Assembly (NCBI GenBank): GCA_048884965.1
Contig: JBHLQH010000005.1
Location: 1-64,000 of the forward strand
Direction of reading: 5' to 3'
Length of the DNA: 64,000 nt
Origin: Candidatus Thorarchaeota archaeon
Lineage (GTDB): Archaea > Asgardarchaeota > Thorarchaeia > Thorarchaeales > Thorarchaeaceae
Shown piece after piece: positions 17,871 to 42,668 of the stretch; the stretch's first letter is position 1; every line of letters begins with the position of its first letter. The translations under genes and the position numbers were made by a program. The notes beneath the pieces are model-generated. The model did no database searches and had not been told where the DNA came from. It saw nothing but the letters and a program-made list of their open reading frames with translations.

Positions 17871-19220
17871 TTGGATAGCTACATCGAAAGTGTCTACGAA
17901 AAAGTGGTGGAAAAAGATCCTGATCAGAAGGTCTTCCACCAAGCTGCGTTGGAGGTTCTCGAAACCCTAGAGCCTGCTATCAAGAAGTATCCTATCTATA
18001 AGGAGAAGGCCATTCTTGAACGAATCACTGAACCTGAGCGAGTTTTTATGTTCAGAGTTCCTTGGGTCGATAGAGATGGCAAGATACAGGTCAACAGAGG
18101 TTTTAGAGTTCAATTTAATTCTGCAATCGGTCCCTACAAAGGTGGTCTAAGATTCCATCCTACAGTTAACCTTGGCGTTTTGAAATTCCTTGGATTTGAA
18201 CAGATTTTCAAGAACAGCCTAACTGGTCTACCTATGGGTGGTGCTAAGGGTGGTTCTGACTTCGATCCTAAAGGAAAGACTGATGATGAAGTCCGTAACT
18301 TCTGTTACAGCTTCATGCTTGAACTATACAGGCATATCGGTCAATTCATTGATGTACCAGCAGGCGACATCGGCGTAGGTGGTCGTGAAATCGGGTACCT
18401 TTATGGGGCATACCGAAAGGCAACTAACAACCATGGAACCTGTGTCCTAACAGGCAAAGGTGCTGGTTGGGGTGGCTCGCTCATTCGTCCTCAAGCAACT
18501 GGATATGGTTGTGTATACTTTGTCCAAGAGATGCTCAAGACTCGTAATGAGGATATGAAGGGCAAGGTGGCTGCTGTATCCGGATCTGGTAACGTCGCTC
18601 AATATACTGTTGAGAAGTTGCTTGATTTGGGTTCAAAGGTCATAGCCATGAGCGACTCAAGTGGATGGATTCACGATCCCGAGGGTATCGACAGAGAAAA
18701 GCTCGCGTGGATCATGGATTTGAAGAATGTCCGAAGAGGCAGAATCAAGGAATACGCTGATGAATTCAAGAGTGCAAGCTTTGAAGCTTCTGGCAGTCCC
18801 TGGCAGCTTAAGGTTGATCTAGCATTCCCAAGTGCAACACAGAATGAAGTCGATGCGAATGAGGCGAAAGCTCTCGTTGACAATGGTGTGCTTGCCGTTG
18901 GAGAAGGCGCCAACATGCCCACTGTTCCTGCAGGTGTCGAGATATTCCTAGAGAACAAGATTCTCTATGGTCCCGGTAAGGCTGCAAATGCTGGTGGTGT
19001 ATCAGTTTCTGGACTAGAGATGGCTCAGAACAGCATGCGCTACTTCTGGACCCGTGAGGAAGTCGATCAGCGTCTCAACCAAATCATGGTCAACATCCAT
19101 AAGGCTGCTCATGATACAGCTGAGATCTTTGGTCAGAAGGGTAACTATGTACTCGGTGCAAACATCGCTGGCTTCTTGAAGGTTGCCAATGCAATGGTTG
19201 ACCAAGGTTACTTCATGTAG
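17871..19220 (+). CDS. gdhA: NADP-specific glutamate dehydrogenase
   Basis: GPYKGGLRFHP, GGAKGGSDFDP, DVPAGDIGVG, GSGNVA, EGANMP, KAANAGGV. Confidence 0.96.
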   Translation: MDSYIESVYEKVVEKDPDQKVFHQAALEVLETLEPAIKKYPIYKEKAILERITEPERVFMFRVPWVDRDGKIQVNRGFRVQFNSAIGPYKGGLRFHPTVNLGVLKFLGFEQIFKNSLTGLPMGGAKGGSDFDPKGKTDDEVRNFCYSFMLELYRHIGQFIDVPAGDIGVGGREIGYLYGAYRKATNNHGTCVLTGKGAGWGGSLIRPQATGYGCVYFVQEMLKTRNEDMKGKVAAVSGSGNVAQYTVEKLLDLGSKVIAMSDSSGWIHDPEGIDREKLAWIMDLKNVRRGRIKEYADEFKSASFEASGSPWQLKVDLAFPSATQNEVDANEAKALVDNGVLAVGEGANMPTVPAGVEIFLENKILYGPGKAANAGGVSVSGLEMAQNSMRYFWTREEVDQRLNQIMVNIHKAAHDTAEIFGQKGNYVLGANIAGFLKVANAMVDQGYFM

Positions 19221-27058: not shown

Positions 27059-29668
27059 ATGGAAAGCAAGAAACGTGGAGTTCAAACACCCAGCACCGTT
27101 GAAGCAATCAGAATGGCTTCAGCATCCATACTTGGAACCACAACAAGCAGGGGCTATCCTTTGGGTAGTGCAACTGGTTCTGGTAGTATGATGGAGGAGA
27201 ACTCTGAAACAGTCGCACTTAGTGTAACTCCTTTAATTTTTTCACTACGAGATGAGATGCTTGCATCAGAAAATCTTGAGCTACTATCATTGGAATGGGA
27301 CCTTGAGCGGACGCAGAGTCAAGAGGTCTTACCAGAGCACTTGATAATTGCTGGTGGTAAATCTGGAGATGTAGCATCACATGTGTGTGCACTGAGCTGG
27401 GAAACCGGAGTTATTGATCCATTTAGGATGGATAGCTATATTGCGACAATTGCGAAGAAGCTTTCAGATATTGAGAAATCGATTATAGGAAATGAATTGG
27501 ATTACGAGGTTGAAGGTATCAATGTTCTGAGAAGATTCTCTGATCGTTTGAACAATGTCACATTTGTTGAAATGCTTGATCGTCAATTCCAAGAAACATG
27601 GGAAACACAGAAACTTAAACCCGAGAATGTCGATATAGAAACTATTCTGAAGTACGAGTTTCGTGATGATTATTCTGCAAATCCTCCTGGACCAAGATTG
27701 CAGCGACGTAAATCTGCTGATTTCAATCTTCCAGAAGGAAATGAGAATGCGCTTCTTCTCCATCTTCAAAATAGAATCATTTCACCCAAAGGCCTTGATG
27801 CAATTGCTTCTCGTGTTCCTGATATGGGGCGCGATATCCTGTCCGAATTGAACGAATATGCATTCAGCATTGAAGAGGTCGATATAGCTAGAGCTACGAT
27901 TGCTGCATTGACGTCCTTCATTGGAAAGGATGAAGTACGACCTGCAGAATTGAATGACCTTTCGATAAAAGCTGCTGAGTTCACAGAGAAGATGTCAGAA
28001 GTCGCTGAAGTCTATTCTGATGTCCTAGAGAAACATTCCACCTCAGGTGCTCGCCTCGCATTGAATGATCATGAGCAGACTCTCAAAAATCATATTGAAG
28101 ATCACTCTTCGTCCTTAGACGCACTGCAAATTGGATTCGCTAAATCTCTACTTGGTCATATGATGACATCCATTAGACGAGAGTTCCCAATATCTGGTGA
28201 AATTCGTGCTTGGGAGCTCAAAGCTTCATTCTCATATTTTGCTGCCTTCACAAAAAGAGTTCTTGGTTACATCGCAAACGATTTGCAGCAATTCCTATTG
28301 ATCAACTCCGTCAAGAAGGTCATGAGAGAAACTCTCCAAGAATTTAGGAAAGAGGGAGAAGAGCAATCATCAAATAGTACAGAACTACTTCTTTTCCAAA
28401 AATTCTATTCAGAGCTATATTCTCTCCTGAACGCAATCATTGACAGAATCTCCTTTGAAGGAATTCAACGAAAAGAGGTTGAGTCTGTGATTGAGGACAT
28501 CACTGGTGAGATTAGTGACGAGTTCAAGAAAATAGATGTTTGGGATTTGATAGACTTCAATGATCTTGCTGAAATTGCAAGAGCTGAGATTAGGAATCGT
28601 GTGGAATCGCCCGAGGCGAAAGTTACCGCTGAATCACTTATTGCATTATTATCCGAGTTTGAACGATTTGTTGGAGAAACATTGCCTGATGTAGGAGATA
28701 CATTCCTTTCCAAGAAATCTCTCCGTTCTGTAATCAATACCATTGCTGAAACTGGCATCAATCTTCACCAAACACTCACCAAAATAGTAGAAAATGAAAC
28801 AGAGAAGCCTGATGAATGGAGGAAAGAGGCTTTCTTATGGATTGATCAGCTTAGCACACTGATTGATGAATCCATGCCCCTTTCAGAACAGATCTTCACT
28901 TTTATCAAGTTGGGCTATCTTCAGCTAGGCGAAGGAGCCACTCCTGAGGCTGTCCTTGAGCGAACTAGGGAAGAAGCCAAGGACCTAGAATCCGAATATA
29001 ACGAAGTAGTTTCTGAGTGGAAAGACAAATGCAGTGTTATTGAGCAAGAGAATCATCCTATTCGTGAAAATAATGAAAAACGCTCAGCAAAACTGAATGA
29101 AGCTGTCGTTCTATTTGAACAAGAGATGAAGCAATACACCGAGGCTTTTGAAACCCACAAGCAACTTCTTGCAGCATATCAACTCGAAGCAGATTCTACT
29201 GATTCAACTCCTCCAGCACCACCAAAGAAACCTGAAAGTCTGGAAGAGCGTAAGGCACGTATAGAGAAAGAAATCCCCCTATTGCAGGAGAAACCCAAAC
29301 CTCCCAAGCCTGAGCCCTCAGAAAAGATTCTAACCTATATCGAACTTCGCGACCTCTTGGATAAGGAATTTGAACGAATGAAACGAAGTCAAGAAAGGAT
29401 GGAACAGGTCTTTACACTCAAGCTCCGAGCGCTCAAATCCGAAGGTGCAAGAATAACTGAAGAGATAACGATTGGTATCAGCTCTGAATTTCTCGAATAC
29501 TTGATGAATGCAGCAATACGAAAATTGGGTCGTCTATTGCCTCGCGCGAAAAGAGCGTATCTAAGAGACCCTGAGGATTCGAGCTTAGTCTATCTAGTTA
29601 ACTACGAGTTTAAAGGCTCAATACTTACTGTGTCAATCGGAAACAACCTACTGAGGAGGGAGCAATAA
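27059..29668 (+). CDS. Large hypothetical helical/coiled-coil protein (869 aa)
   Basis: Long ORF, E/K/L-rich, Pro-rich turn within the C-terminal coiled coil; start uncertain. Confidence 0.8.
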   Translation: MESKKRGVQTPSTVEAIRMASASILGTTTSRGYPLGSATGSGSMMEENSETVALSVTPLIFSLRDEMLASENLELLSLEWDLERTQSQEVLPEHLIIAGGKSGDVASHVCALSWETGVIDPFRMDSYIATIAKKLSDIEKSIIGNELDYEVEGINVLRRFSDRLNNVTFVEMLDRQFQETWETQKLKPENVDIETILKYEFRDDYSANPPGPRLQRRKSADFNLPEGNENALLLHLQNRIISPKGLDAIASRVPDMGRDILSELNEYAFSIEEVDIARATIAALTSFIGKDEVRPAELNDLSIKAAEFTEKMSEVAEVYSDVLEKHSTSGARLALNDHEQTLKNHIEDHSSSLDALQIGFAKSLLGHMMTSIRREFPISGEIRAWELKASFSYFAAFTKRVLGYIANDLQQFLLINSVKKVMRETLQEFRKEGEEQSSNSTELLLFQKFYSELYSLLNAIIDRISFEGIQRKEVESVIEDITGEISDEFKKIDVWDLIDFNDLAEIARAEIRNRVESPEAKVTAESLIALLSEFERFVGETLPDVGDTFLSKKSLRSVINTIAETGINLHQTLTKIVENETEKPDEWRKEAFLWIDQLSTLIDESMPLSEQIFTFIKLGYLQLGEGATPEAVLERTREEAKDLESEYNEVVSEWKDKCSVIEQENHPIRENNEKRSAKLNEAVVLFEQEMKQYTEAFETHKQLLAAYQLEADSTDSTPPAPPKKPESLEERKARIEKEIPLLQEKPKPPKPEPSEKILTYIELRDLLDKEFERMKRSQERMEQVFTLKLRALKSEGARITEEITIGISSEFLEYLMNAAIRKLGRLLPRAKRAYLRDPEDSSLVYLVNYEFKGSILTVSIGNNLLRREQ

Positions 29669-32124
29669 TGTCAAGCTCATGGCTACTAAAAACTCGACAG
29701 ATGAGTGAAGCTGGTAAAGAGATCATCCTAACACAAGCTCTGGCGACTCATATGAGAAGTCCCCGTGATAGACAGTTAGTTATGGGTGCCTTCACTGAGA
29801 AACACCCTCTAGAAGATCTAATCTCATTCTTTGGTGCTTTCTACCTGTATCATTATCAAGGACTAAGATTGCTAAAGCTGGATGCTTCAGATGACCTATC
29901 GATAGAAGAACGAGAGGCTTTGACGAAGAAGGAACGGGAGCTACTCGAAATCGAAGTCCGGATGATGTTGGGGGAGAAGCAACGAGAAGAAATCGATGTT
30001 AGTCGAATAGCTAGCGAATTCATTGTTGAAGCCTGTAATTTGATAAAACAATCTCCCATATCTGAACGAATCGATTTGACGAATTCAATAATTGATTTGG
30101 TTCGCAAATTTGCCCATATGATTCCTACTGATTATTCAAGTAATAGTGAAATTGATTTCATTAATGAGATTACAGGATGGGCGACAAAATGGCGTCGTGA
30201 GCTGTACGTAAAGGCTTCAGGATTGAAAGAGTCCTCATTGTCTTTGAGGGAGGAGCTACTTCGTACTCATCATGAAGAGATTGCAGAATCAGCTGTTCTA
30301 AAGATGGGAGTTGAAGAGATAACTGGAAGTATGCGTTTGTGGGAAGGTCGACTCCTTACAGACAATCTACCAAAGGATATCTGGATGAAGATTGGTTCCG
30401 CGGTGATTGATTATCTCAAGAATAGCGGTAGTTCATTGGACTCCATCCGTACTGCGTATGAGATTCGAATGTCTGTTCTAGATTTGATGGAACAGGAAAT
30501 TGAGATGCCCACATCGTTAGAAGAATACGAATCTCTCATTGGGAAGGTTATAATTGGGGAGATTTCGAAAACTTCTCCAGATATCAATATCGTTGAGGTG
30601 ATATCGCATTTCGTTTCTATTCCCTCCGATGAGGTCCTTGCTGAACTCAGAACAAACGGTATTATGAATCCTGCAACAATTGTCGAAGGACTGAAGGCCA
30701 GTATCGATGAGGTTGAAACAGAGGGATCCGGAGAATCAGATGATACACAATCATCTACGAAAGTTGATCTCGAGGAGATAACTCGCAAGATTCGACGCCT
30801 AGAGAAACTAGAAGACACTCTAGAAAAACCTGTAAAGGGCATGCTCAAGGCAAAAGGTCTCAGGGCAGTGGAATTGGACAAAATATCTATTGAATTCTTG
30901 ACAAAGCCCAGAGCATCTCTTCTCGGATTCGAAATTCAGGTGCTTGAGGAATTAGGCAAAAAAACTCGTGTACCAGATCCTGACGAGGTTTCTAGTCTTC
31001 TCCAACTTCGAGAGGATTTCAAAAGTGGTTTACTTACAGGTGTCGAGATGAAAACATCTTCTGATTTGGGTCGACAAATTCAACATGGGAAGTCAATCGT
31101 TCAATTAAGGAATGACCTTGTGTGGTACTTCACTATTGGGATTCTGAAGAATCTCGCTAGAGTGATCGAAACATACATTCGATCGAAGCACGATATTCAA
31201 AGATCAAAAACACTTCTGAAGAGTATATATGAAGACTCTGAATCTAGTTTGCAGTTCTTAAGAGAGGAGATATTGATTGACCTACTCTCAATGCGGCTCT
31301 ATGAGATGAAGATGATTCATCCAGAACTTGATGCTAGCACAGTTTGTACTTGGTATCAGGCTAGACTATCAAATACAGATTTGGATAGTGCAAGAGAATT
31401 TCTAGAGAACAGCATATCTCCTGTGTTTGCAGGAATTGTGAGTTCTCCTCTTAATCTGACTGCACTTACGTTTGATAATTATGCAATAGCATATGATTTG
31501 ATGCAACGCTTCTTAAATCAACAGAGAACAGAGCGAGACATTCGCATTGAGCTGGTTTCGGAGGCTAAACTAGCTGAGGAACAAAAGAGAGAATCAGCAA
31601 AGTCCGGTCTTGATGTGATGAACTTCATTTACACCAAAGCGCACACTGTCTTCAGAGCTATTGGACGAGTAGGATCAAGAGGATTGGAATGGAACGCCAA
31701 TGATGATGCAAAGTGTGCCAATTTACTTGCATTCTTCCTGAAGACCAGTCGTGCACGTCCTATTTGCCAAGTTTGTGGGGAAATATCAGATGATAAGAAA
31801 TGCAGTACTCATGGAAAAGGTCAGATGAATGATTCCAATGATGTCGATAATCTATCTTGGTTCGTTATGCGTGCTATTACGGATATCAAGGAAGGATTGC
31901 TAGGCGCAAAAGCTGAACCCTTGACATGGTCAGAATCTAGACAAATTGTGCAAAGGGAAATCGCAAACCTTAGACGACGCGGTAAGATAACTAGCAAAAC
32001 CAATCTCAAAGCCATGCTGCCTGGAGAGATCAATTACATAGTTGGTCCAGCAATAGCTACGATTATTGGCAAGTACTTCAATGAATCTCTTGAATACGCT
32101 GCCCGAAGAGCTGGTATTGCATAG
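29668..32124 (+). CDS. Large hypothetical helical protein (818 aa) with CxxC...CxxH Zn finger
   Basis: TAATG overlap with the upstream gene, GAGG SD, CQVCG...CSTHG. Confidence 0.82.
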   Translation: MSSSWLLKTRQMSEAGKEIILTQALATHMRSPRDRQLVMGAFTEKHPLEDLISFFGAFYLYHYQGLRLLKLDASDDLSIEEREALTKKERELLEIEVRMMLGEKQREEIDVSRIASEFIVEACNLIKQSPISERIDLTNSIIDLVRKFAHMIPTDYSSNSEIDFINEITGWATKWRRELYVKASGLKESSLSLREELLRTHHEEIAESAVLKMGVEEITGSMRLWEGRLLTDNLPKDIWMKIGSAVIDYLKNSGSSLDSIRTAYEIRMSVLDLMEQEIEMPTSLEEYESLIGKVIIGEISKTSPDINIVEVISHFVSIPSDEVLAELRTNGIMNPATIVEGLKASIDEVETEGSGESDDTQSSTKVDLEEITRKIRRLEKLEDTLEKPVKGMLKAKGLRAVELDKISIEFLTKPRASLLGFEIQVLEELGKKTRVPDPDEVSSLLQLREDFKSGLLTGVEMKTSSDLGRQIQHGKSIVQLRNDLVWYFTIGILKNLARVIETYIRSKHDIQRSKTLLKSIYEDSESSLQFLREEILIDLLSMRLYEMKMIHPELDASTVCTWYQARLSNTDLDSAREFLENSISPVFAGIVSSPLNLTALTFDNYAIAYDLMQRFLNQQRTERDIRIELVSEAKLAEEQKRESAKSGLDVMNFIYTKAHTVFRAIGRVGSRGLEWNANDDAKCANLLAFFLKTSRARPICQVCGEISDDKKCSTHGKGQMNDSNDVDNLSWFVMRAITDIKEGLLGAKAEPLTWSESRQIVQREIANLRRRGKITSKTNLKAMLPGEINYIVGPAIATIIGKYFNESLEYAARRAGIA

Positions 32125-32456: not shown

Positions 32457-32566
32457 CCAATCACCTATTCTTTCCTTGAATGATTATCCAATTTGGTGTA
32501 TCGTTAGTCAGCTTGGAAACATATATACACAAGGTACTTTCGCAATTGCTTCATCGGGTGAATGAT

Positions 32567-33961
32567 ATGGGGAAAAAATTTGTGCCCAGAGGCGTTATGC
32601 CTGCTCTTGTAACCCCCTTCACGAAGGATGGAGATCTTATAGAAGACAGCTATAAGGAAATAATCGACTATGTCATAAGCCGAGGAGCTACTGGCGTTGT
32701 TCCAGCAGGGACAACTGGCGAGTTCGTCTATATGCGAACAGAAGAGCGGAAGAAGCTTCTTCGTTTGACAGTGGACATCGTTGATGGTCGTGTTCCAATT
32801 GTAGCCGGTACGGGACAGAATAGCACAAAGGCTACTATCGCATTGACAAAGTATGCTGAAGATATAGGATGCGATGCAGCATTAGTTATCTCTCCTTTCT
32901 ACTTGAGACCCGGTGACAAAGGTTACTATGAGCACTACGAAAATGTTGCTAATCAAGGTAATTTGCCAATTATCCTCTATAATATACCTCAATGCACTCT
33001 TGGTGTTCTCACCTCATCAGTCGTTGAAGATTTGGCAGAGCTTGACAATGTCGTTGGAATCAAAGATAGTAGTGGAGTGATTCCACATACTGTTGAATTG
33101 ATTCAGAAACTAAAAGGAAAGATACCTGTCCTCATCGGTCATGATGAGTGCTTCTTATCTGCAGTTGCTGCTGGTGCACAAGCTGCAATTCTTGCATCTG
33201 CGAATATTATCCCCCATATATGGCTGGAGATCATGGAAAAAGTTCAGAGTGGTGATATCCCAAGAGCAATGGAACTTCAACACTCAGCTCAAACATTCGC
33301 CAGAATCGTAACTCGAAATGGAGGAGCTCCTCCTGTTAAGGCCGCTTTCAAGATGATGGGCATCAAAGCTGGCAAATCAAGAATGCCGCTAGATACGGGT
33401 GGCACATTATCAGTGGAGTTGAAGGATGAGATACGATTGGAACTCGAAACCCTTGGTCTTCTTGAGCCATTACATACTTCATCCATTGATACAAACATAA
33501 GTATTGAGAAGCTGCTTGCAGATGAGGGTTTTGAGGTTGGCTCAGAGGTTCTTCTGGGATCCGCTTCGTCTGAAAGGATTGCGGTAAGTGTCGCCGCTGG
33601 TCCCAAGAAGGGTGTCCTAGGTAGGGCTTTTGTGAAGCTACTTACTTCGCCTCGAATTGGGCACGAAGCACTTTCTGTTATTCTGGAACCAAATCTTGCC
33701 GTTAAACCGAGCAGCCTCATGGTACCAATGAAGACCATCACCTCTATGAGACAGGCCTCTTTCTTCTATGGTCCTGTTCAGTCAGGTGCTGCAAAGGCTT
33801 TTGCAGGAATCTTGGAGCATGGTAAAATCCCCACAAAATCGATTCTTGAAGATGTTGTAATCCTTGCTGTGGATGTCGACCTTCAGTCCCACAATAGAAG
33901 ACAAGTCACATCTGAAACAGAGCAAGTTGTGTCGCAAGCGCTGGAGGAAATCTGGAGGTAA
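32567..33961 (+). CDS. DapA/NanA-family class I aldolase fused to a Fae-like domain (copy A)
   Basis: GTTGE, LYNIP, GIKDSS; C-terminal GPKKG..GRAF...GH..L..ILEPNL.VKP...RQA..FYGPVQ. Confidence 0.88.
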   Translation: MGKKFVPRGVMPALVTPFTKDGDLIEDSYKEIIDYVISRGATGVVPAGTTGEFVYMRTEERKKLLRLTVDIVDGRVPIVAGTGQNSTKATIALTKYAEDIGCDAALVISPFYLRPGDKGYYEHYENVANQGNLPIILYNIPQCTLGVLTSSVVEDLAELDNVVGIKDSSGVIPHTVELIQKLKGKIPVLIGHDECFLSAVAAGAQAAILASANIIPHIWLEIMEKVQSGDIPRAMELQHSAQTFARIVTRNGGAPPVKAAFKMMGIKAGKSRMPLDTGGTLSVELKDEIRLELETLGLLEPLHTSSIDTNISIEKLLADEGFEVGSEVLLGSASSERIAVSVAAGPKKGVLGRAFVKLLTSPRIGHEALSVILEPNLAVKPSSLMVPMKTITSMRQASFFYGPVQSGAAKAFAGILEHGKIPTKSILEDVVILAVDVDLQSHNRRQVTSETEQVVSQALEEIWR

Positions 33962-33966
33962 ATAAG

Positions 33967-35442
33967 ATGAGTGAGAAATTCAAGTTCAAAGGTGTTTATC
34001 CCGCATTGGTAACGCCCTTCAATGAAGGTGGGATAGATGAAGCAAAATATCGTGTTCTCATCGATTACGTGATTAGATCTGGAGCTACCGGGATTGTTCC
34101 TTGTGGCACAACTGGTGAATTCACTTCAATGCGATTTGAGGAGAAAGTTGAGGCCATTCGAATTGCATGCGATGCCGCAAAAGGAAAGGTCCCAGTCCTT
34201 GCGGGAACTGGTGCTGCATATACTGGTGACGCAATAAAGATTACTAGAATGGCTGCAGAGTATGGAGCTGATGCAGCCTTAGTAGTTTCACCGTACTTCA
34301 TGAAACCCTCGAACAAAGAACTATTCGAGCACTACGAGAGAGTTGCCAACAATTCAGATATTCCGATCTTTCTCTACAATATCCCACAAGTCACTGGAGT
34401 GCCAATACACTGGACCGTTGTTGATGGTCTTCGTGAGATTGATGGCATTATCGGAATGAAAGACTCAAGTGGTGATTTGGTCAATTTGACTACCATCCTA
34501 GTGCGAAGACCGGATGATTTCCAAGTTGTTATTGGACATGATGAAGTTGCGTTACCTGCTTTGGCGAGTGGGTGTGATGGTGCAATTCTAGCAAGTGCAA
34601 ACATCTTCCCGAACAGATACATCAAAATGCAGAGTGCACTCGCGAATGGAGATTTGAAGGAAGCATTACTGGTACAACGAAGCATTCAGAAGACTGTACG
34701 AATCATTGTTAATCGGGGCGGTGGACTAGCAGTTAAGGTTGCTCTAAATATGATGGGAATCCCTGTCGGTCTGGCTAGGAAACCTCTTCTGAAAGGAGAT
34801 TCGATGTCCTATGAGGATATTGATGAACTAAGGACTTGCTTAGAGGACCTCCAGTTGATTCCTAAGGGTCCTGTGACATTCAAGATGGGCAAGAAGTCTG
34901 TCATTTCAGAAACCTATCCCAAAGCTGTAGGAATGGTCCCTAGTATTGTCGAGGATCTTACTTTATTGCATGGAGAGTCTCTTTGTGGTGCAGGAAATGA
35001 GGTGGCACATGTTGATCTTGTACTAGGAATTCGTGATGGTCCATTGAGTACTGCTTTGGAAGGCGCTGGTTCGATTCGCGAAGGCTATCATACTGCGGAG
35101 ATCATCAAGGATCTTCAGCCAACGACTGTCTTTGCACCAACCGTTACGATTACTCATGAGCACCACAAGAAGATGGTACATGATTTTGCAAAGAAGGCCG
35201 TCATTGATGCCGTGAAGAGAAGTATCACTGATGGAGTCATTCCCGATGAACTGGTTCCTGATATTCTCATTATGGCGAATGTCTTTGTGCATCCCAATGC
35301 CGTTAATCCTCGAAGAGTGCATATCAACAATTTTCGTGCTGTCCGTCATGCAATTAGACGCGCAATCGAAGGCAGATTCTCCACTGATGAGATAATTGCT
35401 AGGAAGGAATCTGCACGGCATCCGTTTGCATACAATCCATGA
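33967..35442 (+). CDS. DapA/NanA-family class I aldolase fused to a Fae domain (copy B)
   Basis: GTTGE, LYNIP, GMKDSS; C-terminal GESLCGAGNEVAHVDL...VFVHP...AIRRAIEG...SARHPF. Confidence 0.9.
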   Translation: MSEKFKFKGVYPALVTPFNEGGIDEAKYRVLIDYVIRSGATGIVPCGTTGEFTSMRFEEKVEAIRIACDAAKGKVPVLAGTGAAYTGDAIKITRMAAEYGADAALVVSPYFMKPSNKELFEHYERVANNSDIPIFLYNIPQVTGVPIHWTVVDGLREIDGIIGMKDSSGDLVNLTTILVRRPDDFQVVIGHDEVALPALASGCDGAILASANIFPNRYIKMQSALANGDLKEALLVQRSIQKTVRIIVNRGGGLAVKVALNMMGIPVGLARKPLLKGDSMSYEDIDELRTCLEDLQLIPKGPVTFKMGKKSVISETYPKAVGMVPSIVEDLTLLHGESLCGAGNEVAHVDLVLGIRDGPLSTALEGAGSIREGYHTAEIIKDLQPTTVFAPTVTITHEHHKKMVHDFAKKAVIDAVKRSITDGVIPDELVPDILIMANVFVHPNAVNPRRVHINNFRAVRHAIRRAIEGRFSTDEIIARKESARHPFAYNP

Positions 35443-35480: not shown

Positions 35481-35743
35481 TATTATACGATTAAGAAAAA
35501 ACTGAATTTGGCCATATGTTAAGCGACTGAATTCAAGATTGTCTCAGATATTATCACATCCTTCTGTATACTATGTTCTATGGTACACTACATGAAGAAA
35601 CACGTTAAAACGCCATTAAAACCAATTCCAGAAGGAGCTATCTGGACATCGTCCTATATATACTTGGATTGCATTAACAAGAAACAAGTCTAGCATCCCA
35701 TTCAGGTGCCGCGCTATCCACCGCATCCGTTGGAGATCTAAAC

Positions 35744-35968
35744 ATGGCTGAAACCTGCGAGATTGCATTGAAGCAGATACCTTCACGCAATTTGAGGAAG
35801 CAGGTTAAAAGTTTCGTTAAAGGAGATGATGTACTCGTTCAGGACATTTCGGGTCAACTATATTCTGTTGAACTAAAACGGAATAAATTGGTTCTAAAAC
35901 CTGAAAAGAGTGTAGACGCACAAAATTCTGACGGGGGCTGTGCGTCTATACACTGTCTGAATGCATGA
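35744..35968 (+). CDS. Small hypothetical protein
   Basis: GGAGA SD before ATG; TATA-like TATATA near 35655. Confidence 0.5.
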   Translation: MAETCEIALKQIPSRNLRKQVKSFVKGDDVLVQDISGQLYSVELKRNKLVLKPEKSVDAQNSDGGCASIHCLNA

Positions 35969-36016
35969 AGGTCGGAAGGTTTCAGCCAAATAATTCTTTC
36001 ATGAAGAGTGTGGCTT

Positions 36017-36078
36017 GTCTCAGCTTGCTCTTGGATCTTCATCGCTTTTGCTCCGACAGGGGTAACGGCTTCATAGAC
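36017..36078 (-). ncRNA. Box C/D methylation guide sRNA
   Basis: GUC stem, C (AUGAAGC), 12-nt guide, D' (CGGA), GC-AAAA-GC, C' (AUGAAGA), 12-nt guide, D (CUGA), GAC; both K-turns have correct geometry. Confidence 0.8.
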
Positions 36079-36212
36079 CTATCACAAGGATAGTAGCCAC
36101 AATATATCATAATTGATGAATCCTAATAAGGATTCGAATAAGACACACAACCTAGACCAGATAGGTTCTTGAAGGTGAATGTATAGCACGATTCTTTGAA
36201 AGGGGATGCCGC

Positions 36213-37259
36213 ATGAATCGAAATCTTCTCGGAAAGCACCTTATCCGATTAATAGGTCTCATCCTCTTTGTGGTAATCATACTTGGAACCGATTTCACAA
36301 ACGCAGAAGAGCTAGTTCTCAATATTGATGTAATTAGCTTCCTCTTCTTGACCTTCTTGGTTCTTCCAATAATGGCCTTCAAGGGATTACGATGGTATGT
36401 CATTGCACGAGGATTAAAGATAAACCTCAAAGCGACAGATGCCGTCGAAGGCTTGTGCATTGCTCAGATGACTGGTTTCTCACTTCCTGGATCTCTTGGT
36501 GACCTCATCCGGGTGCCTTTTCTGAAGTGTAGAGGGAATCCTTCTGACCGTTCTATTCTAAGCCTCTTCATCGATGCCATTGCAGCCGCGATTATTCCAT
36601 ACTCAGTTGCATTAATTGCATTGATCGAATTCTTCAACCTTGATGTGATCCTTATAGTTGCAGGTTTTGTATTCGGTGTCCTATTGCTTGGTGGCGGCTA
36701 TGCCCTCTATCGTCTGTTGAAAATCGTTCTTCGTCCTTGGGTCCTTCAAGCAAGGCTTAGACGGATTCAGAAAGGTGGTGCCGTCGGGAGATATGTTTTG
36801 AACTTACGTGAGTCAATTCGAATAATTGGGTTCCCAACTTTCTTGATAGCAGCTCTTGTTTCCGGAATTGCTTGGTTTCTTTACTCGGTTCAAGGATGGC
36901 TTCTTGCTCAAGTCCTCATGCTTGATATCTCTTGGTATCATGTAGCATTGGCTTTGACTTTGACATCAATGATAACTGTTCTGCCTATTTCGATTCAAGG
37001 GGTTGGTGTACGAGAAGGAATGCTTCTCCTTATTTTCAGCACACTCCTTGGATTCGAATCAAGTTCAGTTGTGATATTCTCTATTATTCTAACGATGATC
37101 TCACTTACTCCCTCTCTCTTTGGGTTCGTCAGTTGGATGCGTGATCCATTTGTTAAATTGGAGCCTGCTTCTGTAGAGGATGCAATCACTCAGCCCATAG
37201 AATTATTCCTAAATCTTCCAGCTTTTGATAGAGAAAATGATAGTTCATCGCTAGGATAG
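36213..37259 (+). CDS. Lysylphosphatidylglycerol synthase TM / flippase-like (UPF0104) membrane protein
   Basis: KGLRW, LPGSLGDLIR, LPISIQGVGVREG; polytopic. Confidence 0.88.
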   Translation: MNRNLLGKHLIRLIGLILFVVIILGTDFTNAEELVLNIDVISFLFLTFLVLPIMAFKGLRWYVIARGLKINLKATDAVEGLCIAQMTGFSLPGSLGDLIRVPFLKCRGNPSDRSILSLFIDAIAAAIIPYSVALIALIEFFNLDVILIVAGFVFGVLLLGGGYALYRLLKIVLRPWVLQARLRRIQKGGAVGRYVLNLRESIRIIGFPTFLIAALVSGIAWFLYSVQGWLLAQVLMLDISWYHVALALTLTSMITVLPISIQGVGVREGMLLLIFSTLLGFESSSVVIFSIILTMISLTPSLFGFVSWMRDPFVKLEPASVEDAITQPIELFLNLPAFDRENDSSSLG

Positions 37260-41681: not shown

Positions 41682-42668
41682 ATTAGCCGCAAGAAATGGG
41701 GAAAATCAGCCACGAAAACCGATAAGGTGATTCGTGACGCGATTCCAAAAACCGAAACATTGAGTGAGATTAATCAATACCTAGCAAAAGCAAGGTCTGT
41801 TACACCTTTTGACTTAGCGAACAGATTCGGGATTCGTATGAGTGTAGCTCGAAAGATTCTGCGAGAGAAAGAATCAGATGGTTCAGTAGTTCCATATATT
41901 CGAGAGAGTGGATTTGTTGTCTACACGACCCCCGCGGAGATTGCTAAGAGGGAAGGTGGAGCTCCTATTATGACAGCTGATGTTCTCGAAGAAATTTCTG
42001 CTTCTGTTACACACGAATCAGTCGTCGATGATGATATGGAAGCGGCTTTGGCTGCAGCAGCATCTTCAGCTGGTACAGTTGTTAAGCCAAGCAAACTTGC
42101 CTATAGACGACGTGAAGTCGGAGAGCGTAAGGAACGAAAAGAGTCTCGCCCTGAGATTGTAGTTGAACCTTTGACCAAGGAAGAAGAAGAGCCTGTAAAG
42201 AAGGTCGAAGAGAGACCTAGGAAGGTCGAAGAGAAGCCAAAGAAGGTCGAAGAGAAGCCAAAGAAGGTCGAAGAGAAGCCAAAGAAGGTCGAAGAGAAGC
42301 CAAAGAAGGCTGAAGAGAAGCCAAAGAAGGCTGAAGAGAAGCCAAAGAAGGCTGAAGAGAAGCCAAAGAAGGTCGAAGAGAAGCCAAAGAAGGTCGAAGA
42401 GAAGCCAAAGAAGGTCGAAGAGAAGCCAAAGAAAGCTGAGGAGAAAACTACCAAGAAGGTCAAGAAGCCTGAGCTTGAGGATATCGATGGCATTGGACCC
42501 AAGACTGCAGAAACTCTCCGAGCTAGTGGTTTCAAAACAGTAGCCTCAATATCAAAGGCCACTGTTGAAAAGCTCTCCCAGAAGGTTGATGGCATTGCAG
42601 AAACAACTGCAACTCAATACATCGAATCAGCGAAAAAGCTAATCGATGAATATGAGAAATCGAAATAG
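41682..42668 (+). CDS. rps25e: Ribosomal protein eS25 domain plus heptad-repeat linker plus HhH domain; probable ATT start
   Basis: KKWGK...VTPFDLANRFGIRMSVARKILRE...VVYT; C-terminal LEDIDGIGPKTA...VDGIA; the first canonical start (GTG 41727) would cut off KKW. Confidence 0.8.
   Translation: MSRKKWGKSATKTDKVIRDAIPKTETLSEINQYLAKARSVTPFDLANRFGIRMSVARKILREKESDGSVVPYIRESGFVVYTTPAEIAKREGGAPIMTADVLEEISASVTHESVVDDDMEAALAAAASSAGTVVKPSKLAYRRREVGERKERKESRPEIVVEPLTKEEEEPVKKVEERPRKVEEKPKKVEEKPKKVEEKPKKVEEKPKKAEEKPKKAEEKPKKAEEKPKKVEEKPKKVEEKPKKVEEKPKKAEEKTTKKVKKPELEDIDGIGPKTAETLRASGFKTVASISKATVEKLSQKVDGIAETTATQYIESAKKLIDEYEKSK
42198..42449 (+). repeat. 12 x 21-bp coding tandem repeat (KK[V/A]EEKP)
   Basis: AAGAAGG(TC/CT)GAAGAGAAGCCA units; first two and last units slightly diverged. 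Confidence 0.95.

Follow-up and report, generated by a model that had tools for sequence, protein, structure and literature searches.

The closest described counterpart of the RNA reported here is sR7 of Methanopyrus kandleri (MKAsR7), whose D' guide is predicted to target 23S G2720 and whose D guide is predicted to target C2784, in the numbering of a published alignment (Dennis et al. 2015, PMC4644070, Additional file 1); these positions correspond to E. coli G2446 and C2510. The same catalogue gives G2720, that is G2446, as the predicted target of Methanococcus maripaludis sR101 (D' guide) and Ignicoccus hospitalis sR414 (D guide), and C2784 as that of I. hospitalis sR473; all four RNAs were detected by RNA-seq and their targets are predictions (PMC4644070). 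In eukaryotes, snR38/SNORD1 has its target at yeast Gm2815, human Gm4392 and Arabidopsis Gm2816 (PMC11542601) and has been traced to LECA (PMC3511168), and the site of U49/SNORD49 is human Cm4426 (Cm4456 in the new numbering) and Arabidopsis Cm2869/2880 (PMC3511168, PMC11542601). For human and plants both sites are listed as mapped, while for yeast the second is not (PMC11542601). Guides in common between species may reflect either ancestry or convergence (Dennis 2015, PMC4644070); for archaeal and eukaryotic snoRNAs no homology could be firmly inferred by Hoeppner and Poole (2012), and G2446 is not among the archaeal counterparts that they named. In the literature that we searched, of which our coverage was incomplete, we found no report of Asgard C/D guides or of an experimental Gm2446 in an archaeon.

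We analyzed a window of 64 kb (the whole stretch of 64,000 nucleotides) from a Candidatus Thorarchaeota genome. Sequence inspection at 36010–36100, on the minus strand, found the elements of a box C/D sRNA where the initial annotation had placed them, with boxes C, D', C' and D in order, two 12-nt guides and an outer terminal stem of 6 bp; a hairpin at 36093–36079 was absent from that description. The features are the following.

36124–36129, minus strand: candidate archaeal TATA box, putative, about 24–29 nt upstream of the stem; read from the sequence and also present in the same-genus genome G014.
36095–36100, minus strand: 5' arm of the outer terminal stem and probable 5' end of the RNA; pairs with 36010–36015, and similar arms occur in orthologs.
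36079–36093, minus strand: hairpin of 5 bp with a 5-nt loop, separating the box C stem from the outer arm; read from the sequence.
36076–36078, minus strand: 5' arm (GUC) of the canonical stem in the terminal K-turn, its partner being 36017–36019; 95% of cells are paired, and two of the three pairs change on both sides.
36068–36074, minus strand: box C (AUGAAGC); position 36075 supplies the remaining base of the 3-nt bulge; the tandem G-A and the G6-C pair are invariant in 21 orthologs.
36056–36067, minus strand: guide 1, the 12-nt D' guide; complementary to 23S 2443–2452 through positions −2 to −11, with D'+5 on G2446 (E. coli numbering).
36052–36055, minus strand: box D' (CGGA in the host, CUGA in 30 of 53 copies).
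36043–36051, minus strand: 2-bp GC stem that closes the internal C'/D' kink, with a 4-nt loop and a bulge base; all cells are paired (100%), and one pair changes on both sides.
36036–36042, minus strand: box C' (AUGAAGA); from the sequence and ortholog comparison.
36024–36035, minus strand: guide 2, the 12-nt D guide; complementary to 23S 2509–2516 through positions −4 to −11, with D+5 on C2510.
36020–36023, minus strand: box D (CUGA); from the sequence and ortholog copies.
36017–36019, minus strand: 3' arm (GAC) of the canonical stem of the terminal K-turn; from the K-turn pairing analysis.
36010–36015, minus strand: 3' arm of the outer terminal stem; pairs with 36095–36100.

The sRNA is intergenic, with an ORF of 74 aa (35744–35968, plus strand) on one side and an LPG-synthase-TM gene (36213–37259, plus strand) on the other. 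The ORF has no Pfam match and is conserved in same-genus genomes. RNA-library contigs from two metatranscriptome studies cover 35708–35899 and not the sRNA, although such contigs cannot show absence. An AT-rich block lies 32–39 nt upstream of box C in orthologs; a sigma-70 promoter scan of the locus was also run and is uninformative for archaea. The hairpin at 36079–36093 recurs, with different loops, in two same-genus genomes (G014 and G019) and is missing from most orthologs. Elsewhere in the window, two tandem paralogs (32480–33961 and 33967–35442, plus strand) are each a fusion between domains of the DHDPS family and of the formaldehyde-activating enzyme (Fae), 29668–32124 (plus strand) encodes a protein of 818 aa with no Pfam match, and the product of 41727–42668 (plus strand) combines a ribosomal protein S25-like N-terminus, a Lys/Glu/Pro-rich repeat linker and a C-terminal helix-hairpin-helix domain.

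A strict pattern of all four boxes and a paired terminal stem gave two matches in the 4.09-Mb host genome, against 0, 0, 1, 0, 0 and 0 in six shuffled genomes; the second host match, near 18499 on the minus strand of contig C15 (G000:C15), may be due to chance. With exact patterns the sRNA was detected in 56–57 of 85 other Thorarchaeota-family genomes, while a reversed control pattern matched in 2 of 86 family genomes, and BLAST also finds orthologs. In the 53 copies that could be parsed, there is hardly any change in the boxes and guide cores, and variation is found in the guide ends, loops and flanks. Pairing in the K-turn stems reaches 93%, against 20–36% for slid controls, and in four of the pairs both partners have changed. 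The terminal K-turn has its tandem G-A, 3-nt bulge and flanking stems, helices 1 and 2 being 92–95% paired with both-sided changes. The internal C'/D' kink motif is also present, with an invariant tandem G-A, a G-C pair in 20 of 21 and a 2-bp stem that is 100% paired; however, the host version is less canonical, with CGGA as box D', a stem of 2 bp and an A-G apposition replacing U-U. Of the two well-formed K-turns that had been described, the terminal one holds in full and the internal one with this reservation. MFE folding of the sRNA was not significant (z = −1.15), as is expected for an RNA folded with the help of proteins. The host encodes fibrillarin and Nop5 side by side on contig C7, plus L7Ae-family genes. 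Anatomy, family-wide conservation, K-turn covariation and the excess over shuffled genomes confirm that 36010–36100 on the minus strand is a real, conserved, stand-alone archaeal box C/D sRNA, and the locus appears to carry the features by which such an RNA can be tested.

A search of Rfam with the sRNA gave no match at the gathering score. The snoR38 model (RF00213), proposed earlier as a check, was the best C/D-class alignment, with the guide at D' in both, but at 18.5 bits (E = 4.4) it fell below the cut-off of 45 bits; the alignment has large gaps and no shared blocks outside the guide, with no homology beyond boxes and guide. The covariance model of U49/SNORD49 (RF00277) gave no match to the sRNA at E up to 10.

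Genes for 16S and 23S rRNA were searched for and are absent from the host assembly, and since the host rRNA is unassembled the targets were read from the 23S and 16S rRNAs of relatives. In all six family 23S rRNAs scanned, positions −2 to −11 of guide 1 form 10 of 10 Watson-Crick pairs with the PTC segment 2443–2452, a score equalled by 1% of shuffled guides; archaeal RNPs are efficient with 9–10 bp of guide pairing, ten pairs being the reported maximum (PMC7229835). The guide core, −3 to −10, is nearly invariant in the 53 copies. By the alignment of Dennis 2015 and the snoR38 consensus, D'+5 falls on the equivalent of E. coli G2446 and yeast Gm2815, in agreement with the initial annotation, which had applied the D'+5 rule. 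The same annotation had described guide 1 as one base away from snR38 and had predicted a eukaryote-like ACAGGG in the host 23S. One letter does differ; it pairs with G2448, which these 23S rRNAs have, so that the difference from snR38 gives a correct pair. The predicted ACAGGG is absent: in the 23S rRNAs of same-genus and same-family genomes the segment reads CCAGGG, and C2442 and G2448 both depart from the eukaryotic sequence. Position 2448 is A in E. coli, eukaryotes and most archaea of the Dennis alignment (PMC4644070), and guide 1 follows the rRNA across lineages: C at −7 goes with G2448 in Thorarchaeota and Heimdallarchaeaceae, while snR38 and most non-Asgard archaea have U. Position −1 is unpaired to the target and variable (U, G or A), so this part of the likeness to snR38 does not reflect complementarity.

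The segment of 16S helix 11 that had been put forward as a weaker alternative can, in some 16S rRNAs of the family, pair over 8 bp with guide positions −4 to −11, and secondary 16S matches are listed for similar guides (Dennis 2015, PMC4644070). Yet the 16S segment varies in the family while the guide does not, −2 and −3 are mismatched, and the score is 11–12 against 20 for the 23S. With at most eight pairs and a variable segment facing a constant guide, helix 11 was rejected as the target, and the reading that guide 1 acts there instead of on the 23S is extremely unlikely. The extent and constancy of the 23S pairing indicate that guide 1 likely directs 2'-O-methylation of 23S G2446.

Several features of the target region were observed beside this. 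G at E. coli position 2448 was found in the family 23S (L037–L047) and also in L033–L035, L041 and L050, covering Thorarchaeota and several other Asgard families. Two distant copies of the sRNA, L301 (G004) and L013 (G074), have C at −10 of guide 1, a mismatch to the universally conserved A2451. Many Asgard 23S genes (L040, L041, L044, L045, L046, L038, L280) have insertions, probably introns, that fall within the guide 1 target or next to it, after about 2439, 2450–2452 and 2475; in those genomes splicing would have to come before guide pairing.

For guide 2, to which the initial annotation had assigned no target, the only conserved rRNA match is 23S 2509–2516, with D+5 on C2510, 64 nt downstream of the guide 1 site. 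The host guide forms 8 contiguous pairs with the 23S of relatives, with mismatches at −2 and −3, and shuffled guides match as well in 86% of cases over both rRNAs and in 10% within 100 nt, so that guide 2 alone is not significant. In the orthologs, the stretch that stays constant runs exactly from −4 to −11, a Watson-Crick pair (G-C2510) is always found at +5, and substitutions at −10 and −3 lead to G-U wobbles. A compensatory change is seen in G024, where the 23S has A2516 and the sRNA has U at −11, in place of the G and C of the other 44 copies, and the G004 copy has a perfect 10-bp guide 2 for its own 23S. The family-wide 23S search was made with a strict pattern and returned one genome; one 23S of G167 (contig C57) differs from the D-guide target, is possibly misbinned, and was left out. 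The sites of snR38 and U49 are also 64 nt apart in human (Gm4362/Cm4426) and Arabidopsis (Gm2805/Cm2869) (PMC3511168). This common spacing in Thorarchaeota, human and plant, together with the comparative evidence, suggests that guide 2 aims at the U49/SNORD49 site. On the covariation in G024 and the 10-bp version in G004, 23S C2510 is the most likely target, and its methylation is predicted as probable.

Taking into consideration that the host guide 2 has 8 pairs, against the 9–10 bp of efficient RNPs, C2510 may be bound but weakly methylated. A reading that goes further is that guide 1 methylates G2446 while guide 2 acts as a folding chaperone at helix 89/90, with no methylation of C2510 in most Thorarchaeota. 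It draws on the A at −3, which stands opposite G2508 in 42 of 44 copies and leaves 8 bp, and on the non-methylating guides documented in Pyrobaculum (PMC6009581) and human (PMC5027482). The constancy of the Watson-Crick pair at +5 argues against it, as do the versions of 9–10 bp in the same register in G004 and Hodarchaeales, and human SNORD49 methylates fully despite an internal mismatch (PMC5027482); we regard this reading as possible, though on balance unlikely. Far less credible is a target at the tRNA-like host locus C4:162139–162275, which has a 10-nt match with one G-U pair and scored 19/20 in a scan of the host tRNA calls: the ARAGORN call there is aberrant and lies within a tRNA array, and guide 2 covaries with 23S position 2516. 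The array itself (G000:C4:161137–163037) is dense, contains atypical tRNAs and is possibly of mobile-element origin. The genome also matches the complement of guide 2 exactly at C3:153337 and C54:9622; these matches were treated as chance.

A paralog of the sRNA stands in tandem with it at L003:1385–1447, L100 and L102 (genomes G017, G042 and G045), keeping the G2446 guide and carrying a different D guide that forms 9 bp with the 23S A-loop, with D+5 at E. coli position 2555. Single copies of this A-loop type were found in G007, G009, G016, G043, G058 and G065. The host assembly has the C2510 type only, and a contig in run X3 carries the tandem pair of a relative.

With C2510 as the favored target of guide 2, the locus very probably encodes a stand-alone Thorarchaeota double-guide box C/D sRNA that would direct 2'-O-methylation of both G2446 and C2510. 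We infer, rather than observe, that the RNA is transcribed, from the TATA-like element at 36124–36129; that, as in the established pathway, L7Ae would bind the terminal C/D and internal C'/D' kinks and recruit Nop5-fibrillarin; and that, if the host 23S matches that of its relatives, the D' guide would pair with helix 74 and the PTC loop (domain V) of the pre-23S for methylation of G2446. The D guide would pair 64 nt downstream for methylation of C2510, and may also help to fold domain V.

When compared with the described systems, M. kandleri sR7 has the same layout, the same box order and the same predicted targets, and in both RNAs the guide letters follow the rRNA of the host. The D guide has about 9 pairs in sR7 and 8 in the Thorarchaeota sRNA, whose terminal stem is longer and holds an inserted hairpin; no shared synteny was seen between the two. 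M. maripaludis sR101 and I. hospitalis sR414 differ from it in their second guides, and sR414 has the G2446 guide at the other box. snR38/SNORD1 (RF00213) shares the target nucleotide and the guide upstream of D', with 10 of 11 guide letters matching the consensus; however, its spacers are longer, its guide pairing extends over 2442–2454 and its consensus has no C2510 guide. U49/SNORD49 (RF00277; plant RF00337) resembles guide 2 in targeting C2510, 64 nt from the snR38 site, but it is a separate snoRNA in eukaryotes, with no yeast site listed. The Thorarchaeota sRNA is thus predicted to function like snR38 plus U49, yet it falls outside both Rfam families.

A genome-wide exact scan for box C, guide and CUGA returned 111 stretches, and among the matches listed 66 of 80 were archaeal. 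With four-box anatomy, the G2446 guide stands at D in Desulfurococcales, Pyrodictiaceae, Methanomethylicota and Nitrososphaeria, and at D' in Methanothermococcus, Methanosarcinales, Hydrothermarchaeota, Nano/Woesearchaeota and Heimdallarchaeum. Pattern matches in families f21, f9, f26, f14, f23 and f12 and in 14 bacteria were without this anatomy and were discarded as chance. The Heimdallarchaeum family has pattern matches in 15 of 31 genomes, which have other D guides. In a Hodarchaeales family, named through its Trm112 clusters, the G2446 and C2510 double guide was found in 17 of 22 genomes, upstream of trm112. As in Thorarchaeota, the D' guide is for G2446 and the D guide for C2510; the Hodarchaeales RNA differs in having a canonical box C, an internal stem of greater length and a perfect D guide, and in its gene neighborhood. 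In these loci (L259–L278) it lies directly upstream of trm112 in nearly all genomes, and variants occur, with two inverted copies in G172, a copy without the 5' half in G156 and a decayed box C in G170. Both guides are also present in the archaeon L152 and in an Asgard bin (G373) with a degenerate D'. In Asgard family f29 a C2510 guide stands at D' in 5 of 7 genomes (L296–L300), and in G380, of the same family, the D guide resembles the G2446 guide, the order of the two being apparently swapped. Neither guide was found with strict patterns in the 135 genomes of Asgard family f9, which is not proof of absence.

The initial annotation had suggested a guide shared by Asgard archaea and eukaryotes. 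Taken at its strongest, this would make the guide an innovation common to the two and directly orthologous to snR38/SNORD1, the host 23S having a eukaryote-like ACAGGG. Besides the snoR38 alignment, this is favored by genus g2, where the guide core is identical to the snoR38 consensus, and by the occurrence of the guide in Heimdallarchaeaceae and Hodarchaeales together with the tracing of snR38 to LECA (PMC3511168). However, C2442 and G2448 of the family 23S are unlike eukaryotes, the score is far under the Rfam cut-off with a likeness limited to the boxes and a guide dictated by its target, and the 135 genomes of family f9 gave no such guide with strict patterns. Moreover, many of the archaeal matches listed are non-Asgard, the guide being present in Thermoproteota, Methanococci, Methanosarcinales and DPANN, and G2446 guides had been published before for Methanopyrus, Methanococcus and Ignicoccus, in the entries for M. 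kandleri, M. maripaludis and I. hospitalis. These refute Asgard exclusivity, and we consider direct orthology of this kind very improbable. In the genomes compared, the G2446 guide is pan-archaeal and not a mark of Asgard-eukaryote kinship; the link with eukaryotes, as it appears from these comparisons, is a shared target site that is present across archaea. Because the guide is pan-archaeal and the target pair had already been predicted for Methanopyrus, the sRNA is not evidence for a special link between Asgards and eukaryotes. G2446 can be added to the few sites for which guides occur in archaea as well as in eukaryotes.

It is conceivable, though we hold it to be doubtful, that the G2446 and C2510 double guide is one ancient orthologous RNA from which snR38/SNORD1 and U49/SNORD49 arose by splitting; alternatively, the Thorarchaeota, M. 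kandleri and eukaryotic guides may have converged on a conserved target. The RNAs are too short, and too tightly bound by their targets, to yield a tree. If the former were true, an ancient double guide would have survived in Methanopyrus, Thorarchaeota and Hodarchaeales as well as in a few further lineages, and it would be a rare guide-RNA family traceable over the archaeal-eukaryote boundary, where Hoeppner and Poole (2012) firmly placed none. For Thorarchaeota, the sRNA gives predictions of two ribose methylations at the Asgard peptidyl-transferase center, at sites that are both methylated in plants and humans. The same pairing is found in Hodarchaeales, which have been proposed to be close to eukaryotes.
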